A model generated the notes under the pieces. It searched no databases and was not told where the DNA came from. It saw nothing but the letters and a program-made list of their open reading frames with translations. From Candidatus Nanopelagicales bacterium (GTDB taxonomy: Bacteria; Actinomycetota; Actinomycetes; S36-B12): a DNA stretch of 61,122 bases. The translations under genes and the position numbers were made by a program. The stretch spans positions 1-61,122 of the forward strand of contig JBMTDJ010000005.1 in the NCBI GenBank assembly GCA_049431945.1, in the 5' to 3' direction. Shown piece after piece: positions 39,026 through 50,652 of this stretch. The number at the start of each line of letters is the position of its first letter. Positions within the stretch are counted from its first letter, which is position 1.

Positions 39026-39637
39026 GTGTTCACCGGCATTGTCGAGGAAGCAGGCGAGATCACCGAGGTGGTCCGTCTTCCCGATGATGCCCTTCGGCTC
39101 GTGGTCCGCGGCAATGTCGTCACGGAAGGAACCAGGCACGGCGACTCCATTGCGGTCAACGGCGTGTGTCTCACAGTGACGGACGTCGCAGGAGACACGT
39201 TCTCCGCTGATGTCATGCGCGAGACACTCGTGCGGAGCTCGCTGAGGGGAGCGGAGGCGGGGATGCGGGTCAACCTCGAGCGCGCCATGCTGCCGACCTC
39301 ACGTCTCGGGGGCCACATCGTCCAAGGCCACGTCGACGGCACAGGGACGCTCCTGTCTCGTCAGCGGTCAGAGCACTGGGACGTGCTGCGTTTCGAGCCC
39401 CCAGCGGATCTTGTCCGCTATCTGGTCGACAAGGGCTCGGTCGCCGTGGATGGCGTGTCTCTCACCGTGTCGGCCGTCGATCCTCAGGCGGGCTGGTTCG
39501 AGGTTTCGCTCATCCCTACGACGTTGACGCTCACGACTCTGGGGGAGCGGGAGGCGGGCGACGTGGTCAATCTCGAGGTCGATGTGATTGCGAAGTACGT
39601 TGAAGGACTCCTGCGGGGCGGGGAGCGCGATGTCTGA
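39026..39637 (+). CDS. ribE: Riboflavin synthase
   Basis: MFTGIVEE, GDSIAVNGVCLTV, GGHIVQGHVDG, NLEVD. Confidence 0.96.
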   Translation: MFTGIVEEAGEITEVVRLPDDALRLVVRGNVVTEGTRHGDSIAVNGVCLTVTDVAGDTFSADVMRETLVRSSLRGAEAGMRVNLERAMLPTSRLGGHIVQGHVDGTGTLLSRQRSEHWDVLRFEPPADLVRYLVDKGSVAVDGVSLTVSAVDPQAGWFEVSLIPTTLTLTTLGEREAGDVVNLEVDVIAKYVEGLLRGGERDV

Positions 39638-40880
39638 ACGTGGGCGCGACCTCGACAAAGCCCTCGACTCCCTCGCGCGCGGTGAGGTTGTCGTGGTGAT
39701 CGACCAGGGGGACGAGGCAGCCGGGGAACCCGGTGGCGCAGACCTGGTACTTGGGGGCGCCCTCGCGCGGGGTGATCGCGTGGCGTTCCTCGTTCGGCAC
39801 GGTTCCGGGTGCGAACAGGTCGCCATGGACGGGGAGATCCTGGATCGGCTCGACCTTCCGCCGATGACACTCGGCATCGACGGCCGGCCCTCTGCCGCAT
39901 CGATCACCGTGGACGCACGCACTGCCCGCAGCGGCGGAGTCAGCTCGGACGACCGCAGCCTCGCGCTCCGCCTGCTGGCGGATCCGCGCACTCGCCCGGG
40001 AGACCTTGTGCGTCCAGGGCACCTTGCTCCCGTGCGCACGGTGGCAGGTGGCACGTTGCGGCGCCCCGGGCGGCCCGAGGCCGCCGCCGACCTGGCGATC
40101 CTCGCCGAGCAGGTTCCGGTAGCGCTGCGCGTGGAACTCGTCGACGACGACGGTGCGCTCATGACGCCACGCCAGGCGCGGGACTTCGCTCGCGAACATG
40201 GCCTGGCGTGCGTGACCATCTCCGAACTTATCGCGCGACGGCGCCGTGGCGAGCGCCATGTGGAACGCTGCGCGGAGTCCTTGCTCATGACCGAGTTCGG
40301 CGCATTCCGTGCCATCGACTATCGGAATCGGCTCGATGGCATCGAGCACGTCGCCCTCGTGGCCGGCGACATCGGCGATGGTGAGCGCGTGCTGGTTCGG
40401 GTCCATTCCGAATGCCTCACCGGGGACATCCTCGGTTCGCTGCGTTGCGACTGCGGCCCCCAACTGCGCGCGGCCATGCGAGCGGTCGCCGAAGAGGGGA
40501 GGGGGATCGTCCTATACCTACGCGGGCACGAGGGCCGCGGCATCGGCCTGCTCCACAAACTGCAGGCCTACCAACTCCAGGACTCCGGTCGCGACACGGT
40601 CGACGCCAATCTCGATCTCGGGCTGCCGGCCGACGCCCGCGACTACGGCATCGGCGCGCAGATCCTGAGTGACCTCGGCGTGCGCTCGATGCGGTTACTG
40701 AGCAACAACCCCGCCAAGCGCGCGGGCCTCGAGGGCTATGGCCTGTCCATCGCCGAGCGCGTCCCCCTCGTCATCGTCCCCAACGAGCACAATGCGCGCT
40801 ATCTCGCGACCAAGGCCGAGCGGATGGGTCACGAATATCGTGACGCGACAGAGGAGACCGTCGACGGGAGGACTGCATGA
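39630..40880 (+). CDS. ribBA: RibBA fusion: GTP cyclohydrolase II with a degenerate DHBP synthase domain
   Basis: C-terminal [22 protein letters not shown] and NNPAK intact; N-terminal RibB-like region lacks RENEGD and GHTE. Confidence 0.88.
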
Positions 40881-44799: not shown

Positions 44800-45606
44800 A
44801 TGCCAGCCGACCTGACGTCGCCGCGCTCCGCGCGCGTCACCGAGGTCCGGCACCTGCACGAACGAAGGCACCGCGCTGAGCGCGGTGCCTTCGTCGTCGA
44901 GGGGCCCCAGGCAGTGAGGGAAGCACTCGGCCAGGGTGTCCTCGAGCTCTACTTGACCGAGGCGGCCGCCGACCGCCACCCGGAGTTCGTGGAGCAGGCG
45001 CGCGACGCCGGTGGGCGGGTCGTCCTCGCCACCGAGGACGTTCTCGTGGCCATGTCGGAGACCCGCCATCCGCAGGGAGTTCTCGCTGTCTGCGCGCTCG
45101 TAGCGCGTCCTCTTGATGACGTGGTCGCGTCTCTGCCAGGCGCAGCGCCCTTAGTCGTTGTCCTCGACCGGGTGTCCGATCCCGGCAATGCCGGCACGAT
45201 CATCCGCACCGCTGACGCGATGGGCGCGGACGCGGTCGTCCTCACGGAGGGTTCAGTTGATCCGCACAATGGCAAATGCGTGCGCGCGACTGCGGGGTCG
45301 ATCTTCCACGTGCCGATCAGCGTCGATGTTCCGGCCGGTGATGTCAGGCGCGTTTTCGGCGACGCCGGGCTGTCCCTCGTCGCGGCCGACGCCCACGCTG
45401 AAGCGTCGCTCGACGATGAGCCGGATCTCCTGCGTGGGCCGATCGCCTGGGTCTTCGGGAGCGAAGCGCACGGTGTCGATGCCGCGTGGCTGGAGTCGGC
45501 CTCGGCCACACTGAGGATCCCTATGTCGGGGGACGTCGAGAGCCTCAACCTCGCAGCGTCCGCTGCCATCTGCCTCTACGCGACATCGCGCGCTCGTGGG
45601 ACCTAG
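44800..45606 (+). CDS. TrmH/SpoU family RNA methyltransferase
   Basis: DPGNAGTIIRTADA, FGSEAHG, IPMSG.VESLNLA SPOUT motifs. Confidence 0.92.
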   Translation: MPADLTSPRSARVTEVRHLHERRHRAERGAFVVEGPQAVREALGQGVLELYLTEAAADRHPEFVEQARDAGGRVVLATEDVLVAMSETRHPQGVLAVCALVARPLDDVVASLPGAAPLVVVLDRVSDPGNAGTIIRTADAMGADAVVLTEGSVDPHNGKCVRATAGSIFHVPISVDVPAGDVRRVFGDAGLSLVAADAHAEASLDDEPDLLRGPIAWVFGSEAHGVDAAWLESASATLRIPMSGDVESLNLAASAAICLYATSRARGT

Positions 45607-45620
45607 GTCCTACCCAGACA

Positions 45621-45760
45621 GGCCCTTTCGACAACGACGATGTCGTCATCATTGAGCCTCGTGAATGGCGGGCCCGGAATACGTCGACTGGAGATCCTCG
45701 GGCGATACCCGCAACGTCCGGTACGGCTACGACCCCACGGCGGTCATGAGCGAGGCCTGG
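45621..45760 (+). pseudogene. Internally deleted, frameshifted remnant of a paralogue of the 45881..46642 gene
   Basis: 45677-45712 encodes EYVDWRSSGDTR (gene: EFVDWKSSGDTR). 45743-45759 GTCATGAGCGAGGCCTG is identical to 46625-46641 (VMSEA at the gene end). Confidence 0.7.
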
Positions 45761-45880
45761 GCGCCGCCGCGTGACGCACACGACACCCGCGTGCCCTGCC
45801 AGGCGATCCTGCGGCCATAGGAGAGAATGGAGGGCCAGGATGGGCCGGTCGCGCTCGCGGCCACGCGAAAGAGGTGTCGG

Positions 45881-46642
45881 ATGAGTTACGTCAAGCTGCC
45901 CGAGCTCGAGGAGACCGGCTACGTCGTCCTGGAGTCCTATGACCAGTCGCAGGACCCCCAGGAGTGGCTGGATATCGAGTTCGTCGACTGGAAGTCCTCC
46001 GGCGACACCCGTTTCGCCCCGCTCGCCTCGGCGTACGGCGACCTCGAGTGCAACGGCTTCTGGCATCACAACCCGCCCAAGACCGATAAGGACGGGGTTT
46101 GGGTGGATGCCAACATCGAGCGTGCCCCGCGTCTCAAGGCGCGCGCAGAGGAGCCGGGCGCCAATATTGGCCGCTGCCGGGTCATCGAGCTCCAGCCCAA
46201 CGAGTACGCCGATTGCATCTGGAATCTTCACCAGGACGACAACAATCGTCTCAATCCGGAGGGGACTGGCTGGATCGTCCGAGGATTCTTCAATCTCACC
46301 GACAATCCCGACTCCTACATGATCCTGCGCGAGGACAAGGATGACCCGGCGACGGAGACGCGCATCCCGTTGCCGTCCGGCACCCAGGTGATCATCGACA
46401 CGCAACGCCTCTGGCATGCGGTGTGGCACACCGGCGAAGAACCGCGGTACTGCCTCATCACCTCCTGGGAGTCCGGTCCGGAGCTCGGCGAGTACATCCG
46501 GGCGCGCAGCCCGAGGAGCAAGGTGGACAACGCTCCGCTGGATCAGAGCGTGATCGACGAGGCGCAGGCATCCGTGGCGCGCCGTCGTGCTGAGCGTGAG
46601 GCAAAGTCCGGCGCCATGGTCGACGTCATGAGCGAGGCCTGA
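45881..46642 (+). CDS. Hypothetical protein, putative Fe(II)/2-oxoglutarate dioxygenase (aspartyl/asparaginyl beta-hydroxylase-like)
   Basis: ATG after GAGGTG RBS; HxD (NLHQD) ... WHAVWH ... EPRYCLI facial-triad-plus-Arg pattern; strong GC3 bias. Confidence 0.6.
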   Translation: MSYVKLPELEETGYVVLESYDQSQDPQEWLDIEFVDWKSSGDTRFAPLASAYGDLECNGFWHHNPPKTDKDGVWVDANIERAPRLKARAEEPGANIGRCRVIELQPNEYADCIWNLHQDDNNRLNPEGTGWIVRGFFNLTDNPDSYMILREDKDDPATETRIPLPSGTQVIIDTQRLWHAVWHTGEEPRYCLITSWESGPELGEYIRARSPRSKVDNAPLDQSVIDEAQASVARRRAEREAKSGAMVDVMSEA

Positions 46643-46720
46643 GTCGGTTTCGCTCCGCTGGCCCTCCGCGGGTAGCGTGGAGGGCATCGTGACCCGCGGA
46701 CCCGCGGGCTACCCAGGAAG

Positions 46721-47653
46721 GTGATCGTGACCTCCGCTGCCCACGCGACGGTGTCCGAAGACGACGTCCTCGATGCACTTGAGGCCGAGGCGATCCACGT
46801 CTACCGCGAGGTGGCCGGCGCCTTCCGCCGTCCGGTCCTGCTGTATTCGATCGGCAAGGACTCCTCGGTGCTCCTGCACCTGGCGCGCAAGGCGTTCGCG
46901 CCTGCGCCGATCCCCTTCAAGGTCATGCACATCGACACGACCTGGAAGTTCCGGGAGATGATCGAGTTCCGCGAGCGGATGCGCGAGGAGCTCAGCCTGG
47001 ACCTCAAAGTCCAGACCAATCTCGAAGCCGTGGCCGAGGGGGTGACGCCGTTCACCCATGGCACTCACGAGTACACCCGGATCATGAAGACGGTCGCCCT
47101 GCGCCAGGGCCTCGATGAGCTTCAGGCGGACTGCGCCATCGGCGGAGCTCGGCGTGACGAGGAGAAGTCCCGCGCCAAGGAGCGCATCTTCTCGCTGCGC
47201 GAACCGGGCCACCGCTGGGACCCTCGCAAGCAGCGACCTGAGTTCTGGCGCACCGCCAACACGGTGCTGGCCGACGGTCAGACCATGCGGGCCTTCCCGA
47301 TCAGCAACTGGACGGAGTTCGACGTCTGGCGGTACATCCGTCGCGAGCAGATCCCCATCCCGGATCTGTACTTCGCGCGTCCGCGCCCGGTCGTCCAGCG
47401 CGAGGGGACTTGGATCATGGTCGATGACGACCGGCTGCCCCTGCGCGAGGGTGAGTCGCCCGAGATCCGGTCGGTGCGATTCCGCACCCTTGGCTGCTAC
47501 CCCTTGTCGGGCGCGGTTGAGTCGACCGCAGCTGATCTCGACACGCTCATCACGGAGATGCTGGAGAGCAACGTCTCGGAGCGTGCCGGTCGTCTCATCG
47601 ACGGCGAGGGCTCGGGCTCCATGGAGGCCAAGAAGGCGGAGGGCTACTTCTGA
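46721..47653 (+). CDS. cysD: Sulfate adenylyltransferase subunit 2
   Basis: [48 protein letters not shown]; start could be 46727. Confidence 0.95.
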
Positions 47654-49542
47654 TGACCACCCTTCTCGAGCGCTCGTCGGGCATCGACGTCACCCCAGTC
47701 GTTCGCCTGGTCACCTGCGGCTCAGTCGATGACGGGAAGTCGACGCTCATCGGTCGGCTCCTCGCGGAGACTGGGTCCATCCCCGAGGACCAGTTGGACT
47801 ATGCCCGCCAAACGCGCAGAGGCGGATCGACGATCCCGGTGGGGGAGGTCGACTTCTCCCTCCTTACTGATGGCCTGGAGGCCGAGCGCGAGCAGGGCAT
47901 CACGATCGATGTCGCGTACCGGCACATGTACCTGCCGAGCGGGCGCCGGGTGATCATCGCCGATGCTCCTGGACACGAGCAGTACACCCGCAATATGGCT
48001 GTTGCGGCATCCAACGCTGACGTGGCGGTCCTCCTGGTCGATGCGGCTCGTGGCGTGCGCCCTCAGACGTTCCGACATCTGACCGTGTGCGCGCTGATGG
48101 GCGTCACTACGATCATGATCGCGATCAACAAGATGGACCTTGTCGGCTACGAGCACGCGACCTTCGAGGAACTCTCGGGGCAGGTGAAGGCGGCGGCTGC
48201 ACGTCTGGGCATCAACGAGGTCATGACGATCCCTGTGAGCGCTGTAGCAGGGGACAACGTCACCTCGCCAACCACGCACATGGCCTGGTGGCGCGGCCCC
48301 TCGCTCCTGAGTGCTCTGCAGGACTGGACCCCGCCCGAGAGCGACTCGACTCATCCCTTCCGTCTGCCCGTGCAGTTTGTCTCGCGCGCAGACGGCAACT
48401 TCCGCGGCTACGCGGGCACCGTGGCCGCGGGCGTCGTGCGGCCGGGTGACAAGGTTGTCGTGGCCGATTCGGGTCAGACGGCAACGGTTGCGCGCATCGT
48501 CGGCTTCCATGGCGACATGGCTGAAGCGGCGACCGGCGACGCCGTGACCGTCACGCTTGATCGCGAGGTGGACGTCACCCGCGGTGACCTGATCGCTGCC
48601 GATGGCACGACCGAGTCAGGAGAGACGGCGTGGCCGCAGCCCGCGGACCGCTTTGCCGCCGATGTCGTGTGGGTAGGCGAGGAAGCGCTCATGCACGGTC
48701 GCTCCTACCTCCTCGCTGTCGGCCCTCGCACGGTGCCGGCAACGGTGACGGTTGTTCGTCATCGCCTTGACGTGGTGTCCGGGCAGAAATTGGCCGCGCG
48801 CGTGCTTGATATGAACGACATCGGGCGCATCGAGATTGCCACCGACACGCCCATCCCCATGGACATGTACGCCCAGTGCCGTGACACGGGCGGCTTCCTC
48901 CTCATCGACCGAGTCACCGCGGACACCGTGGCAGCGGGGATGGTGACACATGCCCTGCGTCGTTCGCTCAACGTGGTTCCGCACTCCTACGAGGTCGACC
49001 GGGAGGCCCGCGCCCGGCTCAAGCATCAGACCCCGCGAGTGGTGTGGCTGACCGGACTGTCGGGGTCGGGCAAGTCGACCGTCGCCGATGCTCTCGAGCG
49101 CCGGCTCTATGCGCTGGGTATGCACACCTTCGTGCTCGACGGCGACAACGTCCGCACCGGCATCAACAAGGACCTCGGCTTCACGCCTGAGGATCGCGCG
49201 GAGAACGTGCGGCGCGTCGCGGAGGCGGCGAAGCTCATGTTGGAGGCCGGCCTCATCGTCGTCGTGGCTCTCATCTCGCCTTTCCGCGCTGATCGTCGGG
49301 CAGCCCGCGAGATCTTCGGAGAGGGTGATTTCCTCGAGGTCTTCGTGGATACCCCCGTCGAGATGTGCGCGACGCGCGACCCCAAGGGACTCTATGCCAA
49401 GGCGCAGTCGGGCACGCTTCCCAACATGACCGGAATCGGCCAGGAGTACGAGGCACCGGAGAACCCCGACGTCCACCTCGATGGCACAGCGTCGGTCGAT
49501 GACAACGTCGAGTCGCTCGTCCGGCTTCTCGTGGGCGACTAG
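47653..49542 (+). CDS. cysNC: Bifunctional sulfate adenylyltransferase subunit 1 / adenylyl-sulfate kinase (CysNC, NodQ-like)
   Basis: GSVDDGKST, EREQGITIDVAY, DAPGHEQY, NKMD; C-terminal WLTGLSGSGKST, LDGDNVR, RDPKGLY. Confidence 0.95.
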   Translation: MTTLLERSSGIDVTPVVRLVTCGSVDDGKSTLIGRLLAETGSIPEDQLDYARQTRRGGSTIPVGEVDFSLLTDGLEAEREQGITIDVAYRHMYLPSGRRVIIADAPGHEQYTRNMAVAASNADVAVLLVDAARGVRPQTFRHLTVCALMGVTTIMIAINKMDLVGYEHATFEELSGQVKAAAARLGINEVMTIPVSAVAGDNVTSPTTHMAWWRGPSLLSALQDWTPPESDSTHPFRLPVQFVSRADGNFRGYAGTVAAGVVRPGDKVVVADSGQTATVARIVGFHGDMAEAATGDAVTVTLDREVDVTRGDLIAADGTTESGETAWPQPADRFAADVVWVGEEALMHGRSYLLAVGPRTVPATVTVVRHRLDVVSGQKLAARVLDMNDIGRIEIATDTPIPMDMYAQCRDTGGFLLIDRVTADTVAAGMVTHALRRSLNVVPHSYEVDREARARLKHQTPRVVWLTGLSGSGKSTVADALERRLYALGMHTFVLDGDNVRTGINKDLGFTPEDRAENVRRVAEAAKLMLEAGLIVVVALISPFRADRRAAREIFGEGDFLEVFVDTPVEMCATRDPKGLYAKAQSGTLPNMTGIGQEYEAPENPDVHLDGTASVDDNVESLVRLLVGD

Positions 49543-50652
49543 ATGTCTGCGCCCAACAATCCGTACGATCCCGTGGCCGTGTCCTCTCTCGAGCCGGCCG
49601 CGGTCGAGGCCATGGTCGCAGCAGCCCTCACGTCTATCGCTGCAGCGGGTGACCTCGACGAGTTGAAGGCCGTGCGCCTGGCGCATGCCGGTGATCGGTC
49701 GCCGCTGGCCCTAGCCAATCGCGAGATCGGAGCCCTCCCGCCCGCAGCCAAGGCCGAGGCCGGCAAACGCGTGGGCAGCGCACGGGCAGCGGTGCGCGAA
49801 GCCCTCGACCAACGCCTGGGCGAACTCGAGGCGGAGCGCGACGCCCGTGTGCTGGTCGAGGAATCCGTCGATGTCACGATGCCGACCGACCGCATGTCTC
49901 GAGGCGGTCGCCATCCGCTGACGACGCTGATGGAGCGCATGGCGGAGGTGTTCATCGCCATGGGCTACGAGGTGGCCGAGGGGCCAGAAGCCGAGGCGGA
50001 GTGGTTCAACTTCGACGCGCTCAACGTCCCCCCGGACCACCCCGCGCGCACGATGCAGGACACGTTCTTCGTGGGCAGTGAGCACAGCGGAGTGGTCATG
50101 CGCACCCAGACTTCCCCGATCCAACTTCGCGCGATGCTCGAGCGCGATCTGCCGATCTACGTGGTCGCACCCGGGCGCGTGTTCCGCACCGATGAGCTCG
50201 ATGCCACCCACACGCCTGTCTTCCACCAGATCGAGGGCCTGGCCATCGACGAGGGCATCACCATGGCGGACCTCAAGGGCACGCTCGAGCACCTCGCGGC
50301 GGCAATGTTCGGCGAGGGCGTCCAGATCCGCCTGCGTCCGTCCTACTTCCCCTTCACCGAGCCGAGCGCCGAGCTGGACCTGCAGTGCTTCGTCTGCCGC
50401 GGAGCCTCCGTCGGCAACCCGGATGCACCGTGTCGCACCTGCTCGAGCGAGGGATGGATCGAGTGGGGCGGCTGCGGCATGGTCAATCCGCGCGTCCTTC
50501 GGGCCGCCGGTATCGACACCGACCGCTACTCCGGATTCGCCTTCGGCATGGGAGTTGAACGCACCCTGATGTTCCGTCACGGCGTCACCGACATGCGCGA
50601 CATGGTCGAGGGTGATGTTCGCTTCACCCGTGCCTTCGGGCTGGAGGTCTGA
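49543..50652 (+). CDS. pheS: Phenylalanine--tRNA ligase alpha subunit
   Basis: [40 protein letters not shown]. Confidence 0.98.

Follow-up and report, generated by a model that had tools for sequence, protein, structure and literature searches.

Results

Genes at the locus

We analyzed a window of 61,122 nucleotides (the whole stretch of DNA under study) from a Candidatus Nanopelagicales genome (G000; 2.3 Mb, 94.3% complete), whose close relatives are labelled Candidatus Nanopelagicales or Actinomycetota and come from fresh waters. On its plus strand, infC-rpmI-rplT is followed by a SpoU-family methyltransferase gene, an open reading frame (ORF) for 253 amino acids, cysD, cysNC and pheS, and all three genes of the block in front of pheS are intact (Table 1). 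The ORF encodes a predicted Fe(II)/2-oxoglutarate (2OG) oxygenase, which we tentatively connect with the formation of 3-hydroxyglutamate (Hyg) in peptidoglycan. An initial annotation had described three co-oriented genes between trmH and pheS. The ORFs, their strand and pheS stand, but the methyltransferase passes no specific cut-off and is closest to RlmB/TsnR-like rRNA enzymes, not to the tRNA enzyme TrmH. The start of cysNC overlaps the stop of cysD, and its own stop abuts the start of pheS with a gap of 0 bases. The G+C contents of the three genes, overall (0.64 to 0.66) and at third codon positions (0.81 to 0.88), are like those of their neighbors (0.68 to 0.70 and 0.80 to 0.84), and therefore, the block is no recent island.

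Table 1. Features at the locus between the methyltransferase gene and pheS, in window coordinates
Feature	Position	Strand	Basis
SpoU/TrmH-family RNA 2'-O-methyltransferase gene, RlmB/TsnR-like (upstream context)	44800..45606	+	PF00588, 126 bits; best NCBIfam model TIGR00186, below cut-off
Eroded oxygenase paralogue (second gene), its 5' piece fused by deletion to the 3' end	45639..45757	+	tblastn with the L085 paralogue
Putative -10 box GAGAAT of the oxygenase gene	45823..45828	+	GAGAAT or GACAAT in 12 of 12 relatives compared
Predicted Fe(II)/2OG hydroxylase gene, 253 aa, cis-proline-hydroxylase/AspH branch	45881..46642	+	AlphaFold model, fold matches, conservation
Putative -10 box TAGCGT before cysD, likely cysD-cysNC-pheS-pheT promoter	46673..46678	+	conserved gap sequences
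cysD, ATP sulfurylase small subunit, sole genome copy	46721..47653	+	NCBIfam, tblastn, Pfam
cysNC, ATP sulfurylase GTPase subunit fused to adenosine 5'-phosphosulfate (APS) kinase	47653..49542	+	NCBIfam, Pfam
pheS (downstream context)	49543..50652	+	sequence and locus synteny

Predicted fold and active site of the oxygenase

A protein search recovered 2261 homologues of similar length, but no Pfam or NCBIfam family matches the protein above its cut-off, sequence and profile searches of the PDB gave no real match, and PHROGs and NCBIfam scans of the family returned nothing meaningful. PF05118 (AspH family) scores 14.5 bits, below its gathering threshold of 22.6, and distant members reach 22.2 and 20.4. 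The C-terminal helical domain PF05373 was found neither on the protein nor in 61 related genomes, with the controls silent as well and a match of the model in G529. Hydropathy gave no hydrophobic segment. No homologue was present in the viral contigs and the phage and plasmid records searched; the ESM Atlas returned Actinomycetota clusters and one phage cluster, 11% of whose members have PF05118, which is a lead only. Longer homologues among the 50% representatives (28 of 150 scanned) showed no credible fusion to a sulfur enzyme, a dedicated search for longer proteins not having been run.

The AlphaFold model (pLDDT 75.5, pTM 0.78, 43 alignment rows) has a double-stranded beta-helix. Its best fold match is L-proline cis-4-hydroxylase (4p7x; Z 12.8, root mean square deviation 3.7, 218 residues aligned; Foldseek E 1e-6 to 4p7w), followed by proline 3-hydroxylase (P3H; 1e5r; Z 12.3, Foldseek E 1e-4) and, at Z 10 to 11, by PHD, AspH, the beta-hydroxylase Cpz10 and EF-Tu P4H. 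The pattern HxD...H...R that had been read in this gene is present as H117-x-D119...H179...R189. For conservation, 772 proteins were fetched, and after removal of short, gapped and duplicate entries, 608 near-full-length homologues were left; H117, D119, H179 and R189 are kept in 606, 607, 605 and 606 of them, respectively. Hence, by the modeled fold with its iron triad and the putative 2OG-binding arginine, the protein is predicted to belong to the Fe(II)/2OG oxygenase superfamily, in agreement with the AspH-like oxygenase suggested in the initial annotation.

Three further arginines, R98, R100 and R134, are kept in 607, 601 and 605 of the 608 homologues. In P3H, according to the available part of PMC9968057, the substrate carboxylate is held by R95, R97 and R122 and 2OG by R168. 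By motif spacing against the 1e5r sequence, these residues would correspond to R98, R100, R134 and R189, and H107/D109/H158 of P3H to H117/D119/H179.

Distribution of the oxygenase family and its neighborhoods

The oxygenase is encoded in 28 of 401 genomes of a phylum-wide sample (~7%). Within the Microbacteriaceae, 58 of 301 genomes encode it. These belong to 17 of 91 genera, with presence almost all-or-none within a genus and mostly two copies; the other 74 genera sampled lack it. In genus g34, 97 of 121 genomes carry the gene, and among named proteins, those of Microbacterium are nearest to the g34 enzyme; the oxygenase tree is a quick build. The named carriers listed, that is, the best 120 or the best 15 per cluster, so that a genus missing from the list is not thereby shown to lack the gene, comprise many Microbacterium species, Subtercola vilae, S. 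boreus, S. frigoramans and S. lobariae, Herbiconiux solani, H. moechotypicola, H. gentiana and H. daphne, and Agreia bicolorata. Also listed are Aurantimicrobium, Marisediminicola, Lacisediminihabitans, Diaminobutyricimonas, Terrimesophilobacter, Glaciihabitans, Nakamurella alba and Jatrophihabitantaceae.

The neighbors of the gene vary. It stands before pheS, radA, mreB or a respiratory-complex-I-like gene, or opposite GmrSD, and no partner enzyme recurs with it across loci. In family f54 of another class, it precedes mreB in three of seven published carriers (four of eight including the unpublished G148); in G284 (L186:582-8138), it lies inside an ndk-rodZ-[gene]-mreB-mreC-mreD-pbp2-rodA operon. 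It follows an L,D-transpeptidase gene in G332 and a LysM protein gene in five loci. As a side observation, one oxygenase paralogue is divergent from a gene of the GmrSD family (modification-dependent restriction) in 10 Microbacteriaceae loci (e.g., L218:4110-6176).

Hydroxyglutamate in the walls of carrier genera

The idea that the family is connected with Hyg was drawn from Subtercola and Herbiconiux, before Microbacterium was checked. In the peptidoglycan of S. vilae DB165, Hyg almost wholly replaces glutamate, and it is reported for the other described Subtercola species, too (available part of PMC5945732). The accessible text of PMC10011130 states that Hyg "may" be present in the genus Herbiconiux, and that of PMC12521503 reports Hyg for M. 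meiriae and M. paraoxydans. The genome of S. vilae DB165 (L071) encodes two copies of the oxygenase and neither cysD nor cysH, and here gene and Hyg-containing wall match at the level of the strain. As far as these partially available sources go, all three genera with a Hyg report (Subtercola, Herbiconiux, Microbacterium) carry the oxygenase family, with this one strain-level match. No described Hyg-forming enzyme or gene was found in the open-access literature, and the available parts of PMC6113628 and its two supplements contain nothing on Hyg. For hydroxyglutamate in Ilumatobacter walls, we found no confirmation, and this taxon is not counted here.

The oxygenase gene and cysD-cysNC as probably separate units

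We compared the 80 best oxygenase loci, of which L052 and L053 are duplicates from one assembly. Downstream of the oxygenase gene, cysD comes next in 37, pheS in 24 and another gene in 16, and in 3 the contig ends. Since the oxygenase gene directly precedes pheS without cysDNC in the 24 loci, cysDNC is likely the later insertion. The interruption of the usual order by three genes, as initially annotated, is thus right for cysD-cysNC but not for the oxygenase gene, which is a long-standing resident. We infer one old insertion between oxygenase gene and pheS in an ancestor within the order, kept by inheritance.

Adjacency of the oxygenase gene to cysD is confined to one order and, outside the host's own family, occurs in 1 of 12 carriers of that order (G044). 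Five relatives of the order, each 92% complete or better, encode the oxygenase and lack a PF01507 gene. In ten genomes of the order, cysD-cysNC stands at sites unrelated to this one and the oxygenase is absent. In a FastTree tree of 51 rows, the cysD of family f5 falls inside the clade of cysD genes that adjoin the oxygenase, and the oxygenase is present in none of five f5 genomes. No PF01507 gene accompanies the oxygenase in four of five named carriers (S. vilae, S. boreus, H. gentiana and a Nakamurella assembly); the fifth, a Jatrophihabitantaceae assembly, has both. The homologue neighborhoods, which the initial annotation had named as a check, gave no homologue of cysD, cysNC, sulfotransferase or sulfatase genes within ~6 kb in any of 47 distant oxygenase loci (27 from the phylum sample and 20 from Microbacteriaceae). 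Three observations speak for a closer tie. In the host's own family, the two genes are adjacent in 35 of 37 genomes, both exceptions lying at contig ends; they overlap or nearly abut in L067, L030 and L031; and a single contig of 151 bases from an RNA library, with the same sequence as the window, spans the oxygenase stop and the cysD start, which may reflect DNA carry-over. Taken together, the oxygenase and cysD-cysNC are likely two separate functions that lie side by side without being linked.

Sulfate activation and the use of PAPS

CysD scores above both NCBIfam CysD cut-offs (NF009214, 453.8 bits against 413; TIGR02039, 451.3 against 396.6). CysNC exceeds the cut-off of the bifunctional CysN/APS-kinase model NF004035 (799.5 against 715) and those of TIGR02034 and TIGR00455, which bears out the APS kinase recognized initially. 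By tblastn, the genome has one cysD and one cysNC, and its single match to PF01507 is cysD itself. Hence, no cysH was found, and PF01077 (sulfite reductase) and PF00916 (SulP transporter) had no match either, in a genome that is 94.3% complete and whose unassembled parts are not covered. The search for a second cysDN with cysH or sir therefore returned the copy in the window only, and neither of the two genes by which assimilatory sulfate reduction would be recognized, cysH and a sulfite reductase gene, was found in the genome. As had been noted, no cysH, sulfite reductase, transporter or sulfotransferase gene adjoins the block. Elsewhere, the genome encodes three sulfotransferases (C137, C12, C42) and two sulfatases (C10, C69). 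With the sole cysDNC, cysH and sulfite reductase not found and three sulfotransferases present, cysD-cysNC very probably supplies 3'-phosphoadenosine 5'-phosphosulfate (PAPS) for sulfation and not for cysteine synthesis, as was initially proposed, and the PAPS likely goes to these three sulfotransferases. Of 61 related genomes, which are kin and not independent, 54 have a PF01507 gene and 7 do not; a PF13469 sulfotransferase was found in 44 of the former and in 1 of the latter, a genome that is 68% complete.

Several sulfotransferase loci deserve mention in their own right. The gene on C42 (3005-10880; L196) lies beside genes for Stealth, an NTP-transferase and two CDP-alcohol phosphotransferases, a candidate locus for a sulfated surface polymer and a likely PAPS sink. 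A secA-linked sulfotransferase (L245:5053-6009, minus strand) is typical of the genus: of 20 sulfotransferase loci compared, 15 fall into its cluster, and 9 of these 15 lie beside secA. In G000, it is missing at that site (C4:3471-3715) and elsewhere. In family f7 (L123:5235-13124, L124:4182-11963), cysDNC is clustered with genes for glycosyltransferases, a sulfotransferase and TauE, likely a sulfated-glycan locus.

Putative promoters and a paralogue remnant

The oxygenase gene and cysD each have a putative -10-like box of their own, predicted from conservation, which speaks against a single joint system. That of cysD lies 43 bases before the start codon. A GGTA(A/G)CGT-type box is present in 23 of 37 oxygenase-cysD gaps and in none of 23 oxygenase-pheS gaps, which instead carry a TAGACT-type box (20 of 23); TANNNT occurs in 29 of the 37 gaps before cysD, compared to 9.0 expected from shuffles. 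A generic scan for sigma-70 promoters and terminators returned nothing, and an Rfam scan of 45400-46900 gave no riboswitch or RNA family (one chance match, E 1.9). From the box before cysD and the missing gap before pheS, cysDNC is likely transcribed together with pheST from its own promoter. RNA-library contigs are short identical pieces over the oxygenase gene, cysD and cysNC that cannot show strand, start or level.

The remnant upstream of the oxygenase gene, overlooked in the initial annotation, retains pieces of the L085 paralogue at query positions 20-51, 31-44 and 236-253. In many relatives, an intact paralogue, ~60% identical, stands upstream in tandem, and the paralogue has been lost repeatedly in the genus; broken copies were also observed in G015 and G026. 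In G034 (L132:10820-12307), an adenosine-deaminase-family gene lies between cysNC and pheS, and the site before pheS thus takes further insertions. Elsewhere in the window (39588-40880) is a RibBA-like ORF whose GTP cyclohydrolase II half looks intact and whose DHBP-synthase half is, by eye, diverged.

Discussion

The interest of the block lies in the oxygenase family rather than in the sulfate genes, which are ordinary. With a probability of roughly 0.35, we propose that the family is a peptidoglycan D-glutamate 3-hydroxylase that makes threo-3-hydroxyglutamate, and that Hyg, as its candidate product, may be far commoner than the records suggest, extending to Nanopelagicales of fresh waters and to further classes of the phylum. 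Hyg has been a marker of actinobacterial taxonomy for decades, and we know of no gene assigned to it. Its formation needs oxygen. No partner travels with the oxygenase gene, which points to a substrate that every cell has. In our model, R98, R100 and R134 would bind the carboxylate of glutamate in a cytoplasmic peptidoglycan precursor, O2 would be split together with 2OG at the iron held by H117, D119 and H179, and the hydroxyl group would be added to the neighboring carbon, C3 of D-glutamate, to give Hyg. Agreia, one of the carriers, presumably contains Hyg in its walls as well.

A number of observations weigh against this proposal. Subtercola, Agreia and Herbiconiux are close kin, and therefore, the match of gene and wall counts for about two independent lineages. 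Although the gene is present in H. gentiana and H. daphne, the accessible text of PMC10011130 describes both with just alanine, glutamate and glycine. M. meiriae and M. paraoxydans are not among the named carriers listed, and the open-access literature yielded no Hyg report for Nakamurella, Jatrophihabitantaceae, Aurantimicrobium, Marisediminicola or the host of the window. The position before mreB belongs to one lineage, in which four of eight f54 carriers have the gene elsewhere, and the gene also lies in operons unrelated to the wall (radA, pheS and others). Two paralogues per genome fit no role stated in the model. Finally, identity to solved hydroxylases is just 13 to 16%, and a profile comparison (hhalign) against a homologue of P3H gave no significant match (probability, 0.05%), so that the mapping of the arginines is an inference from motif spacing and fold.

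It is also imaginable, albeit somewhat unlikely, that the substrate of the oxygenase, again unlinked to cysDNC, is a free amino or imino acid (proline, pipecolate or a similar solute), and that the reaction yields a protective solute or is part of a catabolic step. The closest folds, over 195 to 218 residues, are indeed free-proline hydroxylases, and the carboxylate-binding arginines appear to be kept; however, PF05373 is missing, spacing gives no acidic match to E112 of P3H, and the gene has no recurrent neighbor among transporters, dehydrogenases or biosynthetic clusters. We regard a role in modifying the translation machinery (a ribosomal protein, an elongation factor or tRNA) as unlikely. 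Such a role would explain the home of the gene between infC-rplT-methyltransferase and pheST, since it lies behind the methyltransferase gene and before cysD or pheS in 61 of 80 loci of the host's class, and the protein hydroxylases among the fold matches and the lack of partner genes would fit, too; but in Microbacteriaceae and other classes the gene is far from translation genes, and its presence in the phylum is patchy.

The initial annotation had suggested a module in which a lipid, glycan or metabolite first receives a hydroxyl group from the oxygenase and then a sulfate group by way of PAPS made by CysDNC. The adjacency and tight coupling described above, together with the bridging RNA-library contig, would be in line with such a module, at least in the host's own family, and a sulfotransferase is encoded in 34 of 36 family relatives. 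Nevertheless, we consider it improbable: no sulfotransferase gene is next to the oxygenase gene in any locus compared, the sulfotransferase typical of the genus is missing from G000 although the block is intact, each unit occurs without the other within the order, and the distant loci and four of the five named carriers lack the sulfur partner. The other initial suggestion was a dioxygenase that would liberate sulfate from organosulfur compounds so that it can be activated again. Such a TauD/AtsK-like enzyme, releasing sulfate or sulfite for CysDNC, would supply the unknown sulfate route needed in a genome where family searches found neither TauD nor SulP, but it is very improbable, because the oxygenase has no match to PF02668 (TauD), its fold resembles proline hydroxylases (TauD-type enzymes are absent from the fold matches listed, though such a fold is not thereby excluded), the gene persists in carriers that have no sulfate activation at all, and the genome has two sulfatases.

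If the Hyg proposal is true, an enzyme is named for an oxygen-dependent modification of the peptidoglycan stem peptide, and the purpose of Hyg, whether it protects against wall hydrolases or phage lysins, affects the mechanics of the wall or serves a response to oxygen, becomes testable in a tractable Microbacterium. Furthermore, a chemotaxonomic marker would turn genomic, and a new glutamate C3-hydroxylase would be on offer. If it is wrong, what remains is an unnamed oxygenase family of high conservation, present in ~7% of the actinobacterial genomes sampled.

Compared to known systems, cysD-cysNC shares with the NodPQ-type complex the CysD subunit and the CysN-APS kinase fusion, both over curated cut-offs, and the probable supply of PAPS for sulfotransferases, but it is wedged into the pheST operon of a genome in which cysH and sulfite reductase were not found. 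Mycobacterium cysDNC is a sulfate-activating complex of the same type. With the AspH family (PF05118), whose usual chemistry is beta-hydroxylation beside a carboxylate, the oxygenase shares the fold (Z 10.2 to 10.8 to human AspH and Cpz10, 7v4p) and a weak PF05118 match over the strand pair of H179 and R189; it differs in that this match is below threshold and in having no membrane anchor. Cpz10 is the caprazamycin beta-hydroxylase (available part of PMC9814697). With the cis-4- and 3-proline hydroxylases (4p7w/4p7x and 1e5r), it shares the double-stranded beta-helix, the HxD...H motif, and a 2OG arginine ten residues past the last histidine; by motif spacing, it also has a putative counterpart of their RxR motif plus third arginine for the carboxylate. 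In contrast to these enzymes, which it does not match at the sequence level and whose PF05373 domain it lacks, it has its own conserved HxDDNNR loop and VDWKSSG segment, and its gene is a stand-alone, housekeeping-like one.

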